Part shown: positions 8,495 through 30,668 of the stretch, piece after piece
How the letters are laid out: the number at the start of each line of letters is the position of its first letter
Numbering within the stretch: position 1 is the stretch's first letter
Source: a virus
Lineage: Duplodnaviria > Caudoviricetes
Reading direction: 5' to 3' (one strand)
IMG/VR virus record: IMGVR_UViG_3300044676_003044
Span: 1 to 34,920 of that record
DNA length: 34,920 nucleotides
Notes under the pieces: model-generated
Seen by the model: only the letters and a program-made list of their open reading frames with translations
What the model was told of the DNA's origin: nothing
Databases searched by the model: none
Program-made: the position numbers and the translations under genes

Positions 8495-8572
8495 GAAGCA
8501 CAAATAGTGGCACAAAATGAAGCACAAAAACTTCAAAGGGTTTTTTTAAAGTCCTGAGAAATTTTGTGCTTC
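8495..8572. repeat. G(AA/TG)GCACAAA repeats: three direct copies at 12-bp period plus one inverted copy; candidate integrase arm-type sites
   Basis: 8495-8504 GAAGCACAAA, 8507-8516 GTGGCACAAA, 8519-8528 GAAGCACAAA, 8563-8572 TTTGTGCTTC; partial inverted copy TGTGCTTC at 8267-8274. Confidence 0.75.
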
Positions 8573-8742
8573 GTTTTTAATGCTGTGGGACGGTGAATCT
8601 TGATCCACTGTATCCGTTGAGCATGGTCAGTTAGATCCAATCTCTTGTCAAGAGAGACTGCTTTTTTTACCTCGTCTTTGGGTCTCCGACATTCTTTTGG
8701 AGTCGGGATCTTTACAAAATCTCTGCTTGTCTTTCGACTCAC
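8533..8742 (-). CDS. Possible small basic hypothetical protein (doubtful)
   Basis: The GTG start overlaps the giant gene's stop (GTGA), but there is no clear RBS and the ORF runs across probable regulatory/att sequences. Confidence 0.25.
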   Translation of the reverse strand: MSRKTSRDFVKIPTPKECRRPKDEVKKAVSLDKRLDLTDHAQRIQWIKIHRPTALKTKHKISQDFKKTL

Positions 8743-11700
8743 TGGGCTACTTTTTCTCGTCCAAGTGCTCGTCTTCTAGCCTCCTGCTGCTTGCGAGTAA
8801 ACTCAGGATTTTCCTTGAGTTTCGGTAAGTTTGCCAATGCCTTCTGCAGTTCTGCTATTTGCTTTAGTAGATCTCGATACTCCTTCTGAAATTCTTTCTC
8901 CGACTCTCGTAGATTCTCAGGGTCATTTGCAAAGGCTATTCGATTCTTTTCTTGGTTATAGGCTCTTTCTCGTATGTAGTTTTGAAGGTCTCTGATCTGG
9001 AATCGCAAACCTCCTTCCAAATCAATAGGTCTACCTACTTCTGAAAAGCCAAGTGCTGATGTGATTGGAGAAGCAATCGTTTCATTGAAGGGGTTTGCCA
9101 TTCGGTTGATTGTCTGCACAAACGTCTTCTTCTGTTCTCCTCTGTAGTCAAAAATATTTGCTCGTTCTCCAAATAGATTCGGATTCATCTCCATTGCTTG
9201 TAGTGCTGTTTCCAGTAGTTGACGTTCCCAACTTGTCGGAGAGAACAAAGAGGGCATCACAGTGTCTCTAAAGTGTTTAAACCGCTTATCTATTCCGGTT
9301 CCTAAATCATCAAACTTGCTGGAGATTTCTCGACCTGTGTAGAAATCTTTATTGGCAGTTTGCTGCATGGTCTCTTTTAATAGAGGATGATTAAAGAAAC
9401 CTAAATCACTGATTGCTTCCCACCCTCCATATTTTGGATCAACTGCTGTTGTCAAGAATTGGTACAAGTATGCATGGGGTACAGCATAGAACAGATCCTC
9501 TATTTGTATTCTTCCATTCTCGTCTTTCGTTGGGAGAGGGAAGGTTAACATTCCATGCTTATCATAATACTCCGGTAGAGCCTTTAAGTATGCTTCATAT
9601 TCATCATCATCTAATTCGGATTCTTGTGATACAATATACGCATAGACCATTGCGTAATAAGATGCTGCTCGGAGCATAGCCTGTGGGTCTTTCATCATCT
9701 TACGAAGCAGATCGGTTTGCTTATAAGTCCAAGTAATGAAAGGAGCACCGACTAAAGACTTTCTCACTTTTTTAATTGCAGGGTCTACGTCTGAGTAATC
9801 AAAGAGATATTTGTTTGCTTCTTTCATTGCATCGGATGCAGACATTTCCTCTTGATTCAGGAAAGGAACTCCTGCGATATTTGCTCCGTGATCTTCCAAA
9901 TACATGGCTACCGCAAGTTTATCAACAATTTCCAGACCCTGATAGATATCTCCAAACGTATTATAGATCCTTCCCAGAATATTCATTGCTGTCTGGAATG
10001 AAGCAGTAGAACGAAGCGCATTCATCGTCCGATTCTGATAAACCAGCTTTCGTTCTTTTGGGGTCAGTTGCGTTTTGAAATCTGAGTTCATCCTTCCAAG
10101 CTCATCAGCCGCAAAGGTGGTTTGGATTAAGCCCAAGTCTTTGTATTGCTGATATCGGTCTCCATTCCTTAGTATCTCATACCCTGCTCGTAGTCGGTAA
10201 TCCAGATTTCGATGTACAGGCAATCCAGCAAAAGCCATTGATCCGGTATTGCCTTTTAGGTTATTCATCCAAGCAGTGGGGGATGCTGCTGTCATCTTCC
10301 ACTTAAAAATACTGTTGAACGTACTTGCTGTTCGTTCAAGGTCAGAAGCCCATCCTACTCCCGGTGATGAGCTTGCAGCTTCTTTGTTGATGAAGAAGGG
10401 GTCACCCATTACAAGATTAGCGATCTCTTTACGAACATATGCACCCCGAAGATCTCCATATCGATTAGAGTTTGGTAGCTGACGGTAAGCCTTATGATCA
10501 TACCCTCTAATCTTATTTCGTGCGGCATTCCCTAGTTTTCTATATTCATTTGCAATCGCTTGAACTAACTCTTCTTGAGCAGATCCGGGTTTCTTTGTCG
10601 GGAGGATCTGTTCTTCAATTCGATCTGCTTCTGCCATTAAAAACTCAGGCGAAACTCTTCGATCTGCTTTTTGTCTGGTAGCTGCAGGGAATCCTTCTTG
10701 TGTCAACCGTTGTCCCAGATTCCTGCGTGTAATGATGTCATTGACCAAGTTGGATATATTCAATTTCACTTGAGAGTCAGGTAGTACCCATTCCTTGTTC
10801 TGAGCAACCGCATTAAGGAAATCCATCTTTGCGATATCCTGTCCTGCTTGCAGAAGGGTTCTGCCCACCAGATAACCCGGAGATTCAATCTCGCCTAAGA
10901 ATAAGATTCTCGTTTGTTCATCGATGTCCTGCAGTTGTTTCCGATACCCCTGATCAGATACTTGCAGGTTTGCTCCCCCGGCAAATAGCGATTGGGATTC
11001 ATCCAATAGATACTTTAAATAAACTCGGGGTAGATACTTACCTCTTCGATTCTTAAAGGTCTCAAGACTAATCTGACCCAGACGCACAAGGTCTAGACCG
11101 ATCTGCTCAATTTCTTTTTTTGCTTGAACTGCAGCTTCTCTGAGTGTGGGAAGTTGTCGGTTGGTAAGTTGTCGGAGTCTCAGCTTCCCACCCCAGAAGC
11201 CAGAGACCTGTCTGTCAGGGATTAGGTTTGGATCAGCATTACGATTCTCCATAAAGGCTTTAATCAGTTTTTGCTCATCCGGGGTTGCTGCCATAAAGAC
11301 AGTGGCGAACTTTCGACCTGATTCGATAATCCTAGTTTGCTTCCCTCTCGTTTCCTGCAGCAGGTTTTCCAGTTCTTCTCGATGAGGTAGTCGAGCTTTG
11401 GGATCGAGGAACATGTCCACACTTGCCAGCACCCCTCGGACACTTTCTACATCTCTTGTATTTTGCGGTTGTTGAGGAGGTGTCTGCTGACGGTTAGAAG
11501 AGAATGATATTCTTTGATCATTTGGGTCAAAAGTTCCTTTGTTGAATACGGATTTAATCTGTTCAGGATCGAAAGCAACGTAATTTCCCCTACCTGTTTT
11601 TATTCCGTCATACCCTTTAGATTTCAAAAAATCACGGAGGATGTCTCCGAATCGATTGTTTGCTGACCCTTTTCGCATACCACTTGATTTCATATTCAAG

Positions 11701-14700
11701 TTAGTAAACGCATAACTGTTGCTTGGATTTTCTGCAGTATTCAAAGCAGGACGGATATCTATGCCTAGTTGATCTCCCAGTTCTGTCCAAAGAGCAGTAT
11801 CTACAGGTGCAGCAAGGTCTATTGGGTTTTGAACCGATAAATAAACCGGATAAACAGACTCACCTTTTGAGCTACCAGTACCCTCTGCATATCGGCTTGC
11901 TGCTTCAGGATTAGGCGCAAAGTAAAAACCCCTTCCGTATTGACCCATTACAGATTTTGAATAGTCAAAGGTATCAATATTCGCTTTAGAACCGTGATAC
12001 ATTACTTTGGGGTTACCCTCTGTGTCACGAACCACAGATTGTTTAAACCAGTTATTGAATTCGGGCGTTTCTGTTTGAGCACGATTGGCACTGAAAGAAA
12101 CCTGTTGATCTGCTTTATTTTCTTTGACCCTACGAATAATTTCTTTAGCCCGTTTACTTGGTTTTTGTTTTCCTTGCTCATCATTTTGAGACATAAAGCC
12201 ACCACCCCGACCAGTACTGTAGGGTGGTGTTTTTCCGATGCTGTAATACTGATCTGCTGTCGGATCTAGGATGTTCCCTTCATCGTCCTGCAACCACCAA
12301 TGCACGATACCGTCAGCATCTTGTGCACGGGTTGGGGTATAACCAGAGTCTTTTGCACCCATCATATGGTAAAGTGCTTCTGATGCCGCATAACAGTGTC
12401 CACAGAACTTATTTTTCTTTGCTGCTTCTCGGAAACGTGGTTGAAGTAAATCGATAGTTAGTACTTCTTGAATGTCTTCGATCATTTCATCAGGCGTTTG
12501 CTGACGGTTAGATGAAAACGATGCTTCAGGATTCACCTGTCGGGCAACAATCCCTCTTCCTACTGGTGCAGGGTTGTCGTAGCGTACTGGGTTTTCCATC
12601 GGATATAGATACTTCTGACCATTCTCTTGAATGTCAAAAGTAGATCCTTCAGAAACCAAGTGCTGATCCTGCAAGGCTCTGAACTGTTGCTGGTTGACTA
12701 CTTGAGGTTCACCAACAGTCACCTCACCAATGGCTTGAGCCTGTCCTTCTCCTGTACGGACAATTGCCATTCTCTGACCTACATAAGGTCTCAAAGAATC
12801 CGTATTTCTAGACTCTAACGATTTTTCTCCATCGACAATCAGGTCAGCATAGGATCGTTGAGCTTGCTGGTCTGTCCGAACATTGATCCCCATCTTAGGT
12901 GCATTTGGTGGTAGATTCCGATTGCTACTCAGGCTGATCATTGGCCCGTCAGGATCTATCTGCACGAAACCTACGCTTTCAGGAATGCGAGGTCTTCCGT
13001 CAATGACCGGAAACTTCATTCCATACTCATTGACCTTGATGTCTTCTACTTTTTTTGTTTGACCTTCTAAAGTAACAGTGTCTCCAACCTTTAGATTGTC
13101 TACAGAGTTTTTCGGTGTTGTTGCTTGAGTTGGCTTGTTTTGGGGCAGCACAGTTGCAGGTTCTACTTGCTGTCCATTGACTTCTACCGTAGTTTCAGAA
13201 GTACGCCCCATGTCCTCTCGCATACTACGAGGTACAGGTCGGATATCTCCAGTTTCTGGATCTTCCACTACAGGCACTACTTCTTCGTTCTGCCCGTCTT
13301 CAAACCCGACAACTGTTGCTTCCTTCCCTTCAAAACGGATAGTATCTCCAACTTTTAAATCTGGGTCTGGAATAACAACTTGACCACTTAATTCTAGTTC
13401 TTGAAGTGCTAAGAATTCAGCTAGCTTTTCCCTAACTTTGTTAGCTTTAGCATTTGTGGGGAGTTGAAGTTGTTCTGAAGAAAGTTCGTCAACAAGAGGT
13501 TTAACCTCTTCTATTATTTGCTTCCTTGTTTCTAGATATTCGTCTACATCTCTAATATTTTTTACTTTTTCTTTAGCTTGGCTAAGTTGTTTATCGGTTG
13601 GTGTGGGAACTACTTTTCCATAGAAACTGTGTCTGCCCGATTTAAAAGAGTATATGGTCGAGGGGTTCTCTGCTAGACCCTCTTCAGTAACAGCAGGGTT
13701 AGCACCATACTGTTCTAGTTTCTCTTTCAAAACTGTCATCTCAGCAATCATCCGTCTTGCTAGCAGTTTTTCAGAATCAAGAATTTTTCTTTGAGCTTTG
13801 GAACCGAATGCGGCTTTACCTGTCATCTGGTTGAGTTGCCGCTCAAGCAAATCGTACTGCATTCGTAAAATATCTACCGCTTCTGGACTCAGATCATCAG
13901 GAATAGCTAGACGTTTTCTTGCAGCGTCAATCATCTGATTTGTCGGAGGAAGCAGATCGGGAACTTCTGGAATAGGCTGGAGATCAACAGTAGATGTAGT
14001 GGTTTCTGAGGCTGGTGCTTCAGCAGTAGCTTGATCTACAGTCGTGGTGGTAGGTGCTGCTTCTTTCTCGCTTTCATCTTCTTGACCTTGAACATCTCGT
14101 CTGTTGTAGGAAATCAAATCGGGTTTTCTACCTTTTGCTAAGTTGTCATAGATTTTCTGATACCTACGCTTGATCCCTCGATCTGATGTTTCTCCTGATA
14201 GACCTAACCCGACAGATAACCTATCTAAGAAACCAAGTCGTTCCACTCCGTTTTCTGTAAAGTTCTGAGCCAACCACTCTCTGACACGTTCGGTCGGAGT
14301 GTCATTCGGCATTCCATTCGGGTAGCGTTGTTCAATGAAGGCATCAATTTCTGCTTGTCTTCTATTGTAGAGTTTATTTGCAAAGCGTTGGAACTTCTGT
14401 GGCCCAAGCATTGTTTGAATGCCAGCATGTCCAATTGATTCATGATGGTAAATCTTGACACCTTTTTCTACAGCAGAACGTAGATCTGTGCCTTTGAGGT
14501 TTTCTCCAATCAAATAGACAGTAAAAGTCTTACCCCCATCTGTTGAAACGGTTGCACCTTCCACTCCGGTTGCTGTGTCAGGAATGGTGACCAGTTTTTT
14601 CAGATCTTCCATTGTCTCTAGCACCACTACATCTGATGCATTCGGGAAGTACTGTTTCATGATGTCTTTGAGTACCTCAAGTTCTCGTTGCTTGAGAACT

Positions 14701-17700
14701 TCCTGACCTCGTTTGGTGTCAGGATTTACTGTTATCCCATTGAGAACCTCTGACTTCTTAGTATTCTCGGGAGTTAATTCTACATCAAAAACAGTACTGG
14801 CATCTCGACCTAGATCATCAATAGGTGAAGCTTGATCCATCATCTGTTCAGTCTCAGCCTTGTCTACGATCTCCTGAACAAGTGCTTGATTTTCTTGATC
14901 TTGTGCGATTTCTGAATCAAAGGTTTGTCTGCGGAAAGTTCCTGAAACAGGTTCACTGAGATCTAATGGTGCATCAGTAGCTGGAACCTCACCCAGTTCT
15001 CCAGAAATACTTTCATAGTCTAACGGTTGTTGATACTGCTCATCTGTAAAATCGGTTTGAGCAAAATCGGTTTGTCCTTCTGCTATTGCAGCTTCTTGAC
15101 GGGCTTGAGCTTGAGCCGTAGTCTCACCCTGCACTGGAGTCTGATTTGTCGCAGGAACATCTCCGAGTTCTCCTGCAAGATCATCATAGTTCAGTGACTC
15201 TGAATACTGCTCATCTGTAAAATCGGTTTGAGCAAACGCATTCCGTTGTCGAGTAGTTTCTGCTTCTTGCTCTAAAAACTCAGGTTGAAGGTTTAAAGAA
15301 GCTTCTTGACGGGCTTGAGCATCTGCTGTTTTTTGTCCTCTGGTTCTTGGGTCAAATTGGGCAGGAGGTGCAGGAAGGTTCTCTAGAGGCAGGTTGTCTA
15401 CGTCTGAGATTGGTTGAGTGATATCTTCATAAAATTGGTCATTGATCTGTTCATCAACCTGCTGAATTGGTGAAGGAGGTGCTGCTTCAAACTCCATCCG
15501 AGATCGAAGATCCTGCAGATTCTCACGAAGCATTTGAATCTGAGCATCTCGTTCTGCATCTCGTTCTGCTTGCTCTTGCTGATTGTCTACTGGATTAAAG
15601 GCATCTCCTTCTTCATATGCAGCAGGAGTTTCAGCAGGAGTTTCAGCAGGAGGTTTAGGTTGTGGTTCAATTCCTAATCGTCTGAGGATCTCGTCATTAT
15701 ATACCTGACGTAGAGAATCTTCCTGCTCTTTGAGTTGTGCTTCTTTGTCTTGAAGCTTTTTCATCTCACGGGCCATTCGTTTTTGAGCAGTCACACTCAA
15801 TGGCTTGTCAGCAGGATTCGGTTGTTGGTTACTACTCAGACTGACAGTGGTGCTTGTTGGTTCGGTCTGGGTTGGTTGTTCAGCAGGATTTCTCTCTGCT
15901 TGTTGTTGTAGATTTTTATAGTAGTCGAATTCACTACCAACCCCATCGGCTAATTCTTGCTCTGGTGCAGCTAGGATATCAGTTTGAGTCCGAGGTGATG
16001 TATCCCCAAGATCGTCACGCAGAATAATCGATTCATCTAGAGAGTTATACCATTTAAGTATTTTTCTCTCTTTGGCATCAAGTTCTTGATTGTTCTCAAT
16101 CTTGTCTTGGATCGAGATGATGGTGTTTTTGAATTCAGGCTGATTGACTAGGCTTTGGGCAGGAGCATTGTTGTTGGTAGGTAGAGTTTGAATGCTCTCA
16201 AAAATCTTGTTGGTCATCTGTTTGATGTCCTCAAGACCACCCAATCGGGGTTTGTTCTCAATCATCATCTCTACTGTAGTAATTGGTGCAGCAGTCACTA
16301 CACCCCCATACAGTCCTAACTCAGTAGCCTTATCTTGGGCTACTGGATTCTCTTTTGCCCACTCCCATCGGTTGGTGGTTAGTGTCTCTGAAGTCAACAA
16401 CTCTGGTGCTTTCATCGCAAGACGTTCTGCCATTGCCATGTTCAGCATCGTTGCCACAATCGGAGTATCGGCATAACCTTCTTCTGCACCTTCCACTAGA
16501 GTGTCAAAAGAAACTCTGCCGAGAAATCCACCAATTGGAAGTGATCCGGTTGCTTGCAATACTTGAAAAGCATCAAGAAATTTCTTATCACCAATTAGTT
16601 CTGCTGCTCGTGTAAGAATAATTTCTTTCTCATGATTCTTTTCAGCATCATTTGCAAACCGGGTAGAGTACTTTTTCCATGTCGGGTGGTAGTCGATCCC
16701 ACTTCGTGCTTCCGACTGTAACAAGGCAATATTGCCCGGAATACTGGTCAAAGCGAGAGCAGCACGAGAAGCCACCTCTGCTGTTCTTTTAGGATCTTGC
16801 GCCCATTGATACTTTGGTACTTTCTTTGTGATCAAAGCAGTAGCCATTGCTGTTGCCAGTGGGGCAGAAGACGTTAGCAAAGATCGAATGCCCTCACCAA
16901 CTCCTGTTTTAGGAGTAGGTTGGCGTTTCATATCTGCGGCATTGGCTTCCAGTAAGGATTGTCCAGCCTCCTTTATATAAGGCATTATAAACTTCTTAAT
17001 CTCGGGAATGAGAGTCTGACCGACTAATTCATCCCGAAATGGAGTGGTCATTGCCTCACCATACATTCTTATCTGATTGTCAAAAGCATCCATCAACTCT
17101 TGACCACCTTTATCAACTGCTTCTTTGGCCTGATTAGGTCGGTAGGCTAGTCCGTTTTCTGTCTGAACTTCTCGTAGAGGTCGCTCATTATAGTACTGTA
17201 CTCCGGTACGAGTGTCTGACGCACTATAGGGTTCCTCCCCACGAATCATTTCCCCAACAGAAGTGATCGGGCTTAGAATCTTCTCAAAGATGCCCTTATC
17301 CTGTCCGGTCTCACTCGGAGTTGCTCCCCCTGTCTGGGGCAAACGTGGGATTGGCGCATTTTGAGAAGGCAAGCGAACACGATCTTCTACCGGGTTGGGG
17401 ATGAGTTTACCTTCACGATCAAGCTGATCAGGATCAAGTTCGAACCGATCAACCTCCTGTCCATATAGACTCTTTAACTCAGATTGGTAGGGACGTTGGA
17501 AATACTGAGGTTGGATTTGCTCATACGGTACAAGATTTTGAGTTTTCTGGGCTTGATCGAGATCTTGTGTACCAAGACCCGATAACATGTTTCCAAAAGA
17601 TTCCTGCAGGTAGGTAGGTGCTGCCCCCAGTTGTTGGACAGTATCTGACCCCACATCCTTTAGTGTTCCAGTGATCCCTTCCTGACCAAGTAAGTCAGAC

Positions 17701-17885
17701 ACCATCTGATCTACAACAGATGCCTGACCTTTGAATTGAGGATGCTCTTGATATAGGTTGGTGAGTTCTCTTTTGTAACGGTTTCGCCTTTCTGGCTCAT
17801 CTTTGAACCGATCCTGCAAAAACTCGTTATAGACTCTATTTACTCTTGTGGCCCATTGCTGATCAAACTGATTGAGTTTAGCCAT
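8739..17885 (-). CDS. Giant polyvalent-type virion/ejected protein (3048 aa) with zincin-like metallopeptidase, ASCH, Cys-His-Asp papain/transglutaminase-like and ADP-ribosyltransferase domains
   Basis: HHESIGH...EWLA (14427-14447); GEKSLESR ASCH motif; CGHCY...HWW...ILDPT; F..WF...YHG...GFYF...GYDG...FDPEQIKS; long helical C-terminus typical of phage internal virion proteins; last gene of the structural operon. Confidence 0.85.
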   Translation of the reverse strand: MAKLNQFDQQWATRVNRVYNEFLQDRFKDEPERRNRYKRELTNLYQEHPQFKGQASVVDQMVSDLLGQEGITGTLKDVGSDTVQQLGAAPTYLQESFGNMLSGLGTQDLDQAQKTQNLVPYEQIQPQYFQRPYQSELKSLYGQEVDRFELDPDQLDREGKLIPNPVEDRVRLPSQNAPIPRLPQTGGATPSETGQDKGIFEKILSPITSVGEMIRGEEPYSASDTRTGVQYYNERPLREVQTENGLAYRPNQAKEAVDKGGQELMDAFDNQIRMYGEAMTTPFRDELVGQTLIPEIKKFIMPYIKEAGQSLLEANAADMKRQPTPKTGVGEGIRSLLTSSAPLATAMATALITKKVPKYQWAQDPKRTAEVASRAALALTSIPGNIALLQSEARSGIDYHPTWKKYSTRFANDAEKNHEKEIILTRAAELIGDKKFLDAFQVLQATGSLPIGGFLGRVSFDTLVEGAEEGYADTPIVATMLNMAMAERLAMKAPELLTSETLTTNRWEWAKENPVAQDKATELGLYGGVVTAAPITTVEMMIENKPRLGGLEDIKQMTNKIFESIQTLPTNNNAPAQSLVNQPEFKNTIISIQDKIENNQELDAKERKILKWYNSLDESIILRDDLGDTSPRTQTDILAAPEQELADGVGSEFDYYKNLQQQAERNPAEQPTQTEPTSTTVSLSSNQQPNPADKPLSVTAQKRMAREMKKLQDKEAQLKEQEDSLRQVYNDEILRRLGIEPQPKPPAETPAETPAAYEEGDAFNPVDNQQEQAERDAERDAQIQMLRENLQDLRSRMEFEAAPPSPIQQVDEQINDQFYEDITQPISDVDNLPLENLPAPPAQFDPRTRGQKTADAQARQEASLNLQPEFLEQEAETTRQRNAFAQTDFTDEQYSESLNYDDLAGELGDVPATNQTPVQGETTAQAQARQEAAIAEGQTDFAQTDFTDEQYQQPLDYESISGELGEVPATDAPLDLSEPVSGTFRRQTFDSEIAQDQENQALVQEIVDKAETEQMMDQASPIDDLGRDASTVFDVELTPENTKKSEVLNGITVNPDTKRGQEVLKQRELEVLKDIMKQYFPNASDVVVLETMEDLKKLVTIPDTATGVEGATVSTDGGKTFTVYLIGENLKGTDLRSAVEKGVKIYHHESIGHAGIQTMLGPQKFQRFANKLYNRRQAEIDAFIEQRYPNGMPNDTPTERVREWLAQNFTENGVERLGFLDRLSVGLGLSGETSDRGIKRRYQKIYDNLAKGRKPDLISYNRRDVQGQEDESEKEAAPTTTTVDQATAEAPASETTTSTVDLQPIPEVPDLLPPTNQMIDAARKRLAIPDDLSPEAVDILRMQYDLLERQLNQMTGKAAFGSKAQRKILDSEKLLARRMIAEMTVLKEKLEQYGANPAVTEEGLAENPSTIYSFKSGRHSFYGKVVPTPTDKQLSQAKEKVKNIRDVDEYLETRKQIIEEVKPLVDELSSEQLQLPTNAKANKVREKLAEFLALQELELSGQVVIPDPDLKVGDTIRFEGKEATVVGFEDGQNEEVVPVVEDPETGDIRPVPRSMREDMGRTSETTVEVNGQQVEPATVLPQNKPTQATTPKNSVDNLKVGDTVTLEGQTKKVEDIKVNEYGMKFPVIDGRPRIPESVGFVQIDPDGPMISLSSNRNLPPNAPKMGINVRTDQQAQRSYADLIVDGEKSLESRNTDSLRPYVGQRMAIVRTGEGQAQAIGEVTVGEPQVVNQQQFRALQDQHLVSEGSTFDIQENGQKYLYPMENPVRYDNPAPVGRGIVARQVNPEASFSSNRQQTPDEMIEDIQEVLTIDLLQPRFREAAKKNKFCGHCYAASEALYHMMGAKDSGYTPTRAQDADGIVHWWLQDDEGNILDPTADQYYSIGKTPPYSTGRGGGFMSQNDEQGKQKPSKRAKEIIRRVKENKADQQVSFSANRAQTETPEFNNWFKQSVVRDTEGNPKVMYHGSKANIDTFDYSKSVMGQYGRGFYFAPNPEAASRYAEGTGSSKGESVYPVYLSVQNPIDLAAPVDTALWTELGDQLGIDIRPALNTAENPSNSYAFTNLNMKSSGMRKGSANNRFGDILRDFLKSKGYDGIKTGRGNYVAFDPEQIKSVFNKGTFDPNDQRISFSSNRQQTPPQQPQNTRDVESVRGVLASVDMFLDPKARLPHREELENLLQETRGKQTRIIESGRKFATVFMAATPDEQKLIKAFMENRNADPNLIPDRQVSGFWGGKLRLRQLTNRQLPTLREAAVQAKKEIEQIGLDLVRLGQISLETFKNRRGKYLPRVYLKYLLDESQSLFAGGANLQVSDQGYRKQLQDIDEQTRILFLGEIESPGYLVGRTLLQAGQDIAKMDFLNAVAQNKEWVLPDSQVKLNISNLVNDIITRRNLGQRLTQEGFPAATRQKADRRVSPEFLMAEADRIEEQILPTKKPGSAQEELVQAIANEYRKLGNAARNKIRGYDHKAYRQLPNSNRYGDLRGAYVRKEIANLVMGDPFFINKEAASSSPGVGWASDLERTASTFNSIFKWKMTAASPTAWMNNLKGNTGSMAFAGLPVHRNLDYRLRAGYEILRNGDRYQQYKDLGLIQTTFAADELGRMNSDFKTQLTPKERKLVYQNRTMNALRSTASFQTAMNILGRIYNTFGDIYQGLEIVDKLAVAMYLEDHGANIAGVPFLNQEEMSASDAMKEANKYLFDYSDVDPAIKKVRKSLVGAPFITWTYKQTDLLRKMMKDPQAMLRAASYYAMVYAYIVSQESELDDDEYEAYLKALPEYYDKHGMLTFPLPTKDENGRIQIEDLFYAVPHAYLYQFLTTAVDPKYGGWEAISDLGFFNHPLLKETMQQTANKDFYTGREISSKFDDLGTGIDKRFKHFRDTVMPSLFSPTSWERQLLETALQAMEMNPNLFGERANIFDYRGEQKKTFVQTINRMANPFNETIASPITSALGFSEVGRPIDLEGGLRFQIRDLQNYIRERAYNQEKNRIAFANDPENLRESEKEFQKEYRDLLKQIAELQKALANLPKLKENPEFTRKQQEARRRALGREKVAQ
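14980..15320 (-). repeat. Internal tandem duplication in the giant gene (AQARQEA / FAQTDFTDEQY units)
   Basis: Exact 33-bp repeat at 15033-15065 and 15204-15236; exact 21-bp repeat at 15090-15110 and 15300-15320. Confidence 0.85.
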
Positions 17886-30125: not shown

Positions 30126-30668
30126 TTATACTACCCTATAAGTTAGCGAAAATGCGATATCACTTGTGCCACTTATGCCAATATCTTGAACTTTCAGTAA
30201 AGAATCTATCGTATTATCACCCATTTTACGAATTGTTGCGTAATTCGTACTTGGGGCACTAATGGCAGATAAAAAACCACCACCAGTTATTATCTTGTCG
30301 CAAATAACTGCGCCTGTGCCTATACCTTGATTTGAAATCGATTTTGCCGTAAAAGGCAAATTTCGGAAATATAGAGTATATGTAGCAGTTGCACCACTGG
30401 TATCAATATTATAGAAATTAAAATGAATTGTAACAAGGTTGCCGATTTTTGTATAAGCACCATAATTTACGTTAGACGTAAGCTGATTCCCACCACTGTT
30501 CGCATCATAAACTTCTGGCGTAAACGTTCCCTCCTCGTAGTCATCCAAGATCCCACCAGTAACGGTTCCCGACCCATCTGTACTAGTCCCAAAATTAACT
30601 CCTCCACTCGGAACAACGATCTGACTACTGGAATTGATTGTGCTTGCTAATGTTCGTGCATTACTCAT
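30126..30668 (-). CDS. Short tail-fibre tip / receptor-binding protein
   Basis: LDDYEEGTFTP, YTKIGNLVTI and NLPF fibre-tip motifs. Confidence 0.8.
   Translation of the reverse strand: MSNARTLASTINSSSQIVVPSGGVNFGTSTDGSGTVTGGILDDYEEGTFTPEVYDANSGGNQLTSNVNYGAYTKIGNLVTIHFNFYNIDTSGATATYTLYFRNLPFTAKSISNQGIGTGAVICDKIITGGGFLSAISAPSTNYATIRKMGDNTIDSLLKVQDIGISGTSDIAFSLTYRVV

Follow-up and report, generated by a model that had tools for sequence, protein, structure and literature searches.

A protein-specific peptide tag marks the seams of swappable enzyme modules in a giant phage protein and is a likely cleavage site

What does a six-residue motif do when it recurs at the borders of unrelated enzyme domains within a single phage protein? 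The question is raised by IMG/VR record IMGVR_UViG_3300044676_003044 (Caudoviricetes), a stretch of 34,920 nucleotides (nt), hereafter the window, in which a minus-strand open reading frame (ORF; 8739-17885) encodes a predicted polyvalent protein of 3048 amino acids (aa). An earlier note on this DNA had proposed that the motif S[FL]S[SA]NR delimits effector cassettes, and that it is a protease recognition site, a recombination joint, or both. Comparison with relatives gave strong support to the anatomy, with tags at the seams between modules. The motif is a mark specific to its host protein, placed at seams where modules are swapped, and we consider it probable that it is the cut site of the protein's own predicted HExxGH zincin.

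The four motif copies, starting at aa 1651 (nt 12935), 1789 (12521), 1930 (12098) and 2127 (11507), lie where the earlier note placed them, with spacings of 138, 141 and 197 aa. On the minus strand they occupy 12918-12935 (SLSSNR), 12492-12521 (SFSSNRQQTP), 12081-12098 and 11478-11507 (SFSSNRQQTP again). Two intervals in the note are slightly short: 12081-12098 spans SFSANR only and 15828-15842 spans SLSSN only. The three cassettes between the copies are unrelated, as had been claimed. The first (12522-12917) contains an ASCH domain (Pfam PF04266; aa 1677-1755, 23.8 bits against a cut-off of 21.2) and has close homologues in unrelated host proteins. The second (12099-12503) is a YunG-like Cys-His-Asp cassette (C1831, H1862, D1874) that corresponds to phrog_12251 and matches YunG-containing clusters (Atlas 0.94; YunG on 25-49% of members). 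The third (11508-12080) is an ART-PolyVal cassette with a predicted ADP-ribosyltransferase fold (PF18760, E 1.6e-24; aa 1954-2116, 87.7 bits against a cut-off of 31.2). An AlphaFold model of aa 1614-2200 places each of the four motifs in coil beyond the folded cores, with a predicted local distance difference test score (pLDDT) below 50, compared with ~95 for the ASCH core; low values at the motifs are partly expected because relatives differ at the junctions. The expectation that the motifs lie in linkers, rather than forming a strand of each domain, was thus borne out.

A fifth copy, SLSSNQ (aa 682-687; 15825-15842, minus strand), listed in the note as a looser variant, is conserved in P0002-P0004; S-x-SSNQ is invariant across P0001-P0004, where the flanks diverge. 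Two further variants named there were discarded: LISYNRR is not conserved in P0005-P0008, and YSFKSGR falls within a segment that most relatives lack, with FYGK alone shared. More than one copy of S[FL]S[SA]NR appeared in 0 of 20,000 composition shuffles. The pattern was picked after the fact, however, and a post-hoc control was weak, the largest 6-mer family with four fixed positions reaching four copies in 21 of 200 shuffles. The case therefore rests on position and conservation, and not on count alone.

The junctions coincide with the points at which cassettes are gained and lost. The close comparison comprised seven sequences, six of them distinct (L060 is the contig of P0005). L001 carries the same three cassettes as the window. 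In P0002, with flanks 99% identical, two SFSSNR copies enclose an unrelated cassette of 287 aa; P0003 has a 110-aa cassette in the slot at aa 1789-2127, and P0004, P0005 and L002 have none. The interval aa 1789-2127 thus differs in five of the six distinct relatives, its left and right breakpoints falling at the motifs at aa 1789 and 2127 in each. Each of the ten break ends is at most 4 aa from a motif, in a region (aa 600-2200) of which 8.1% is within 10 aa of one; the ten ends represent three alternative cassette states and not ten independent events. In L002 (97% identical DNA), both cassettes are missing exactly between the repeats, and the joint falls inside the shared repeat. The motif at aa 1651 is kept in P0002-P0005, in P0005 also after an unrelated linker. 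At aa 1930, the cassette match in P0009 stops at aa 1925, and no breakpoint was seen there in close relatives or run contigs.

Contigs from 4 of 20 listed sequencing runs were compared as well, one of which (X1) may be the source of the window. Run X5 showed the same 1014-nt skip between the two motif repeats, with 14 letters fitting both sides and the joint at 12499 and 11484. Loose ends at 12523, 12505, 11504, 12528 and 12899, translated by hand, were in frame and resembled the termini of the cassettes in P0003 and P0002. Loose ends in X5 also read as the P0009-type tag, with IRFSSE after ASCH and SEAP before it (on two separate contigs; linkage between them is not implied). That X5 contigs near the ASCH cassette (12528, 12899) run into P0009-type tags suggests recent cassette movement between differently tagged lineages.

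We then considered whether the junctions are conserved as DNA or as protein. As had been observed, two junctions share DNA: TGCTGACGGTTAGA occurs at 11485 and 12499, within a 31-nt repeat of 84% identity whose left and right copies are the junctions at aa 1789 and 2127. Such a long shared run (14 nt) is confined to this pair, is longer in L001, and measures 14-21 nt overall; its local homology would explain the empty allele. Pairwise comparison of the five copies in the window gives 46 positions with the same residue, and 13 of these share the codon, against 14.1 expected. Between 5 and 15 of 18 nt are identical between copies, and serine codons switch between the AGY and TCN families in 8 of 10 copy pairs. 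L003 and L004 show the same split. Because the motif copies use different codons, with identity at chance level, a dedicated DNA recombination site (integron- or shufflon-like) at every junction was rejected. No recombinase was found among the window ORFs scanned, 16 with Pfam and 14 with PHROGs of 87 listed, in what is a partial genome. Of the proposed recombination joint, what survives is that the 1789/2127 pair has enough DNA in common for homology-based exchange.

The tag follows the host protein and not the cassette. In many unrelated large proteins, these cassettes are accompanied by different tags: RFSSGR/RMSSGR (P0006-P0008), YSSE/MSSE (P0009), KYSRR/LFSRR (P0055, P0057), EFSR/EFSQ (P0046-P0048) and, in further hosts, RASLR, QFSRR, KAxGG and ILxQ. 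The window's YunG cassette recurs in P0009 (57% identical) flanked by YSSE/MSSE tags, and the P0002 cassette is flanked by other tags in P0008, P0009 and P0057. For a non-circular comparison, ASCH and ART modules were anchored on their own conserved ends and the tails that follow were compared, in 84 ASCH carriers and 46 ART carriers; 20 proteins, forming 11 host clusters, carry both. Within hosts, tails scored 19.2 for similarity, against 10.8 across hosts; 0 of 100,000 permutations reached the within-host value, and the host's own tail scored best in 7 of the 11 clusters. In a separate test of own-tag recurrence, the window's protein exceeded all 15 others. Elsewhere, chains with 5-9 ART-PolyVal copies and a similar tag at the end of each were found in P0061-P0064 and P0076. 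In L041-L058 and P0068-P0075 (e.g., L050 5452-14062), consecutive large proteins right after a portal-like gene bear [KRE]AxGG or KxGG tags and mostly lack HExxH.

A candidate for the enzyme that reads the tag lies in the same chain. A predicted zincin-like metallopeptidase domain (aa ~1056-1250; 14136-14720, minus strand) contains HESIGH at aa 1148-1153 and a distal Glu1203. H-E-x-x-G-H is invariant in 16 of 16 aligned sequences, the Glu1203 column is at least 90% conserved, and HESIGH is present in at least five of the six close relatives examined directly (P0002-P0005, L001, L002). The model (pLDDT 68.9) comprises a helix, three strands and two helices, with HESIGH and Glu1203 on predicted helices and an order of elements that fits a zincin. 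In a structural comparison (VIA), the top rows were zincin-fold chains, the best being 3e11 (Z 6.9, root-mean-square deviation 3.3, 96 aligned), below the tool's decisive level. We found no solved-structure relative by sequence, no Foldseek match at E 0.001 and no Pfam peptidase match. Tag class also goes with peptidase subtype: LxQ tags accompany HExGH peptidases in 6 of 9 clusters, compared with 1 of the remaining 33 (42 ART-host clusters; Fisher 1e-4), a post-hoc association confounded by ancestry. The YunG-like cassette was ruled out as an obligatory cutter, being absent from five of six close relatives that retain the motif.

These observations are consistent with the following scheme. 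The protein's own zincin would cut at or beside the tag, either in the head or after injection, and would separate the enzyme modules from one another, from an N-terminal part and from the conserved C-terminal domain, with predicted pieces of ~76, 108, 15, 16, 22 and 106 kDa. The freed modules would act on the bacterial host early in infection. Cassette exchange would proceed by ordinary homology-based recombination, aided by the 14-21 nt common to two tag copies, and selection would keep or rewrite the tag at most new seams. More tentatively, many polyvalent proteins may be self-processing cargo trains with a protease-tag code, in which each lineage's zincin reads its own tag, cassettes from a shared pool are re-tagged on arrival, and matching tag DNA lets strains load, swap or drop modules between fixed N- and C-terminal ejection domains. 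To call the system programmable, as the earlier note did, exceeds the data.

Several results weigh against a tag at every seam or against cleavage by the built-in zincin. In the same relatives, nine other breaks (18 ends) fall mainly in aa 1409-1561, and 1 of the 18 ends lies within 10 aa of a motif. Since these breaks lack the motif, it marks the enzyme zone and not all variation; the expected coincidence of breakpoints and motif held within that zone and failed outside it. The left seam of P0003, where ASCH meets that protein's own cassette, is without a tag; P0055 has none between peptidase and ART, and the window has none after its peptidase, the nearest being at aa 682 and 1651. By a crude test of low power, the tag of a given host was more recurrent there than elsewhere for 8 of 16 hosts. 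Of 14 cluster representatives, 6 have an [FY]S[RKSQ] tag immediately ahead of the C-terminal domain (background 0.047 per 50 aa; 47 of 51 homologues entered the alignment), and is thus common there and not universal. The fold match is middling (PprI Z 6.3, YbeY 5.6) and includes non-protease zincin folds such as YbeY. Tag and peptidase similarity were uncorrelated (Mantel rho 0.02; 16 hosts, low power, with a strict peptidase filter that kept 17 of 46 hosts and dropped some HExxH hosts), as were tag and ART core similarity (rho 0.00, 16 hosts). Proteins with xAxGG tags mostly lack HExxH, and the control asking whether hosts with no peptidase have no tag comprised one cluster representative. 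In the literature, N4 virion RNA polymerase, ArdC and TraC1 carry such domains and yet are described as packaged or transferred whole (PMC5512222), and a preprint on phi24B (10.64898/2026.04.10.717836) reads the metallopeptidase as a peptidoglycan cutter.

Some of these points would fit a less likely alternative, in which the tag serves for binding and is not cut. It would then be a short strand docking on the backbone of the same protein, on a core or chaperone protein or on the exit channel, and would assist packaging or an ordered unfolding and passage. Such a signal accounts equally well for host specificity and protein-level conservation. It would also suit the most conserved tag position, just before the C-terminal domain, the tags in proteins without HExxH, and related HExxH-bearing virion proteins reported as unprocessed (PMC5512222). 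The association of tag class with peptidase subtype argues for cleavage instead, as does the reasoning in PMC5512222 that modules with unrelated targets need separation, and a binding partner for the tag has no candidate.

Cleavage by a protease acting in trans, either another phage protein or a host protease, is unlikely for this protein. It draws on the xAxGG-tagged polyproteins that follow a portal gene, mostly without HExxH; for proteins with [KRE]AxGG/KxGG tags, a separate protease working in trans may be responsible. It also draws on the 4 ORFs without assignment among 14 scanned around the head genes of relative G001, and on the window being a partial genome. Against it, a maturation protease was not recognised in that set of 14, and the strict motif occurs in no other window ORF of at least 150 aa and in none of the ORFs of the relative's head region; the YunG-like cassette can be lost, and the residues of the built-in peptidase are invariant.

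That the tag is nothing more than a recombination scar, left when the exchange of cassettes duplicates or homogenises the DNA at the junction and encoding a peptide without function, is more doubtful still. The 14-nt run shared by the copies at aa 1789 and 2127, its greater length in L001 and the empty allele that joins within it are what a scar would leave. Chance-level codon identity over ten copy pairs, serine family switches that need two base changes, the same split in L003/L004, and tags kept where flanking linkers diverge all speak against it, so that, judged from sequence, the scar as sole explanation appears largely refuted. Least credible is the view that the motif forms the terminal strand in the structure of each domain. 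ART cassettes do share a conserved tail ahead of the tag (QIKS...G.FD), but the same domains bear quite different tags in other hosts, stand-alone YunG homologues (L008, L009, L012 and L014, 4 examined of 8 loci) keep the same C/H/D residues and end without a tag, and all four copies are low-confidence coil in the model.

Returning to the probable cut site and the chain that carries it, the gene context is that of a virion protein. The window is a partial phage genome with replication genes on the plus strand and virion genes on the minus strand. The 3048-aa ORF closes the minus-strand block, and upstream of it are matches to an SU10-type adaptor, to tail fibres and to an internal virion protein (Pfam, PHROGs); in relative G001, terminase, portal, scaffold and capsid genes lie beyond the matching adaptor. 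From this gene context we infer that the protein is packaged in the virion and injected. It combines unrelated predicted activities in one chain (ASCH, ART-PolyVal, YunG-like and HExxGH domains), has a domain family typical of the class (ART-PolyVal, far above its cut-off), sits among late virion genes and varies in architecture among homologues. It belongs to the phage polyvalent proteins and has a junction tag that we did not find in print. Runs containing window DNA are mostly estuarine, marine and freshwater metagenomes.

The conserved C-terminal domain of ~920 aa (8739-11489, minus strand) has 51 homologues and is 91-99% identical in P0002-P0004. It is without a Pfam match, and hence without an LPD match in Pfam. 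Among cultured phages it matched one record, at 24.7%, and the peptidase matched none, indicating no close cultured phage; a viral contig scan queried with the domain gave no match. The second variable zone (aa 1410-1560; 13206-13658, minus strand) has ends without motif, contains YSFKSGR, and is absent or rearranged in relatives, with a joint at 13205-13691 in X5. It is accompanied by two LKVGDT repeats (34 nt, 76%) at 13063-13096 and 13327-13360, of which relatives hold one or the other, in changing order. An internal repeat of ~57-70 aa (14977-15329; 89 nt, 78%) lies in the acidic region at aa 850-970. The cassette of P0002 (aa 1656-1943, ~290 aa), which ends in QVGALVLAxNP, recurs in P0008, P0009, P0011, P0046, P0057 and others, and had no match in Pfam or PHROGs. 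A 69-aa ORF lies beside the 3048-aa ORF at 8533-8742, and a 180-aa tail-region ORF (30126-30668) matches the C-terminal part of phrog_29288 (profile of 1558 positions). In L063 (3050-4151), the major capsid match of a relative is split across two overlapping ORFs (261 and 168 aa), by frameshift or assembly error.

Polymorphic toxins, including phage MuF toxins, swap effector cassettes by recombination, and the polyproteins of RNA viruses combine one chain, a built-in protease and a short cut-site motif that is repeated. The second likeness is an analogy only, as here we have a double-stranded DNA phage, a zincin-type peptidase and variable cargo. Unlike in polymorphic and MuF toxins, the variable part is internal here, the cassettes stand in tandem, and the C-terminal 920 aa are conserved. 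Release of polymorphic toxin effectors by built-in peptidases is summarised in PMC5512222.

The closest precedent is the polyvalent protein class itself, defined by Iyer et al. 2017 (PMC5512222), who also propose processing by a peptidase domain. As in those proteins, ART-PolyVal, a zincin-like peptidase and unrelated enzymes are joined here in one large protein among virion genes. Unlike in the present case, the paper's available text holds no junction motif, cut site or breakpoint mapping ("linker" has 0 matches, and "cleavage site" occurs in one reference only), though alignments among its external files may contain such motifs. N4 virion RNA polymerase and crAss-like polyproteins (PMC13434306; 10.1101/2020.03.07.982082) are giant ejected proteins with or beside an HExxH zincin, and cleavage of the fused crAss polyprotein is called likely; by contrast, we found no polymerase domain here, the N4 polymerase is reported as packaged uncut, and the available text of these sources describes no repeated tag. 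phi24B gp47 (10.64898/2026.04.10.717836), a polyvalent protein of 2811 aa that includes a metallopeptidase, was detected in virions of a podovirus, and an ejection role is proposed for it; it differs in having LPD5, LPD1 and LPD38 domains and a peptidase assigned to peptidoglycan breakdown. PMC9024508, in its accessible text, treats zincin domains or virion protein processing, without a repeated tag in a polyvalent protein. A literature search, with subscription journals mostly outside its reach, returned no paper on junction tags in polyvalent proteins. Autoprocessing of such proteins has thus already been proposed in print, and in the text available the junction motif has not.

A lineage-specific seam tag supplies the 2017 autoprocessing proposal, the accessible text of which names no cut site, with an exact substrate, mutation and termini, and thereby makes it testable in the laboratory. 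In large phage proteins without annotation, tags of this kind also show where domains meet. Should cleavage prove true, matched zincin-tag pairs would constitute a natural set of orthogonal proteases, and processing at the tags would explain how several early-acting enzymes are delivered against bacterial defences.

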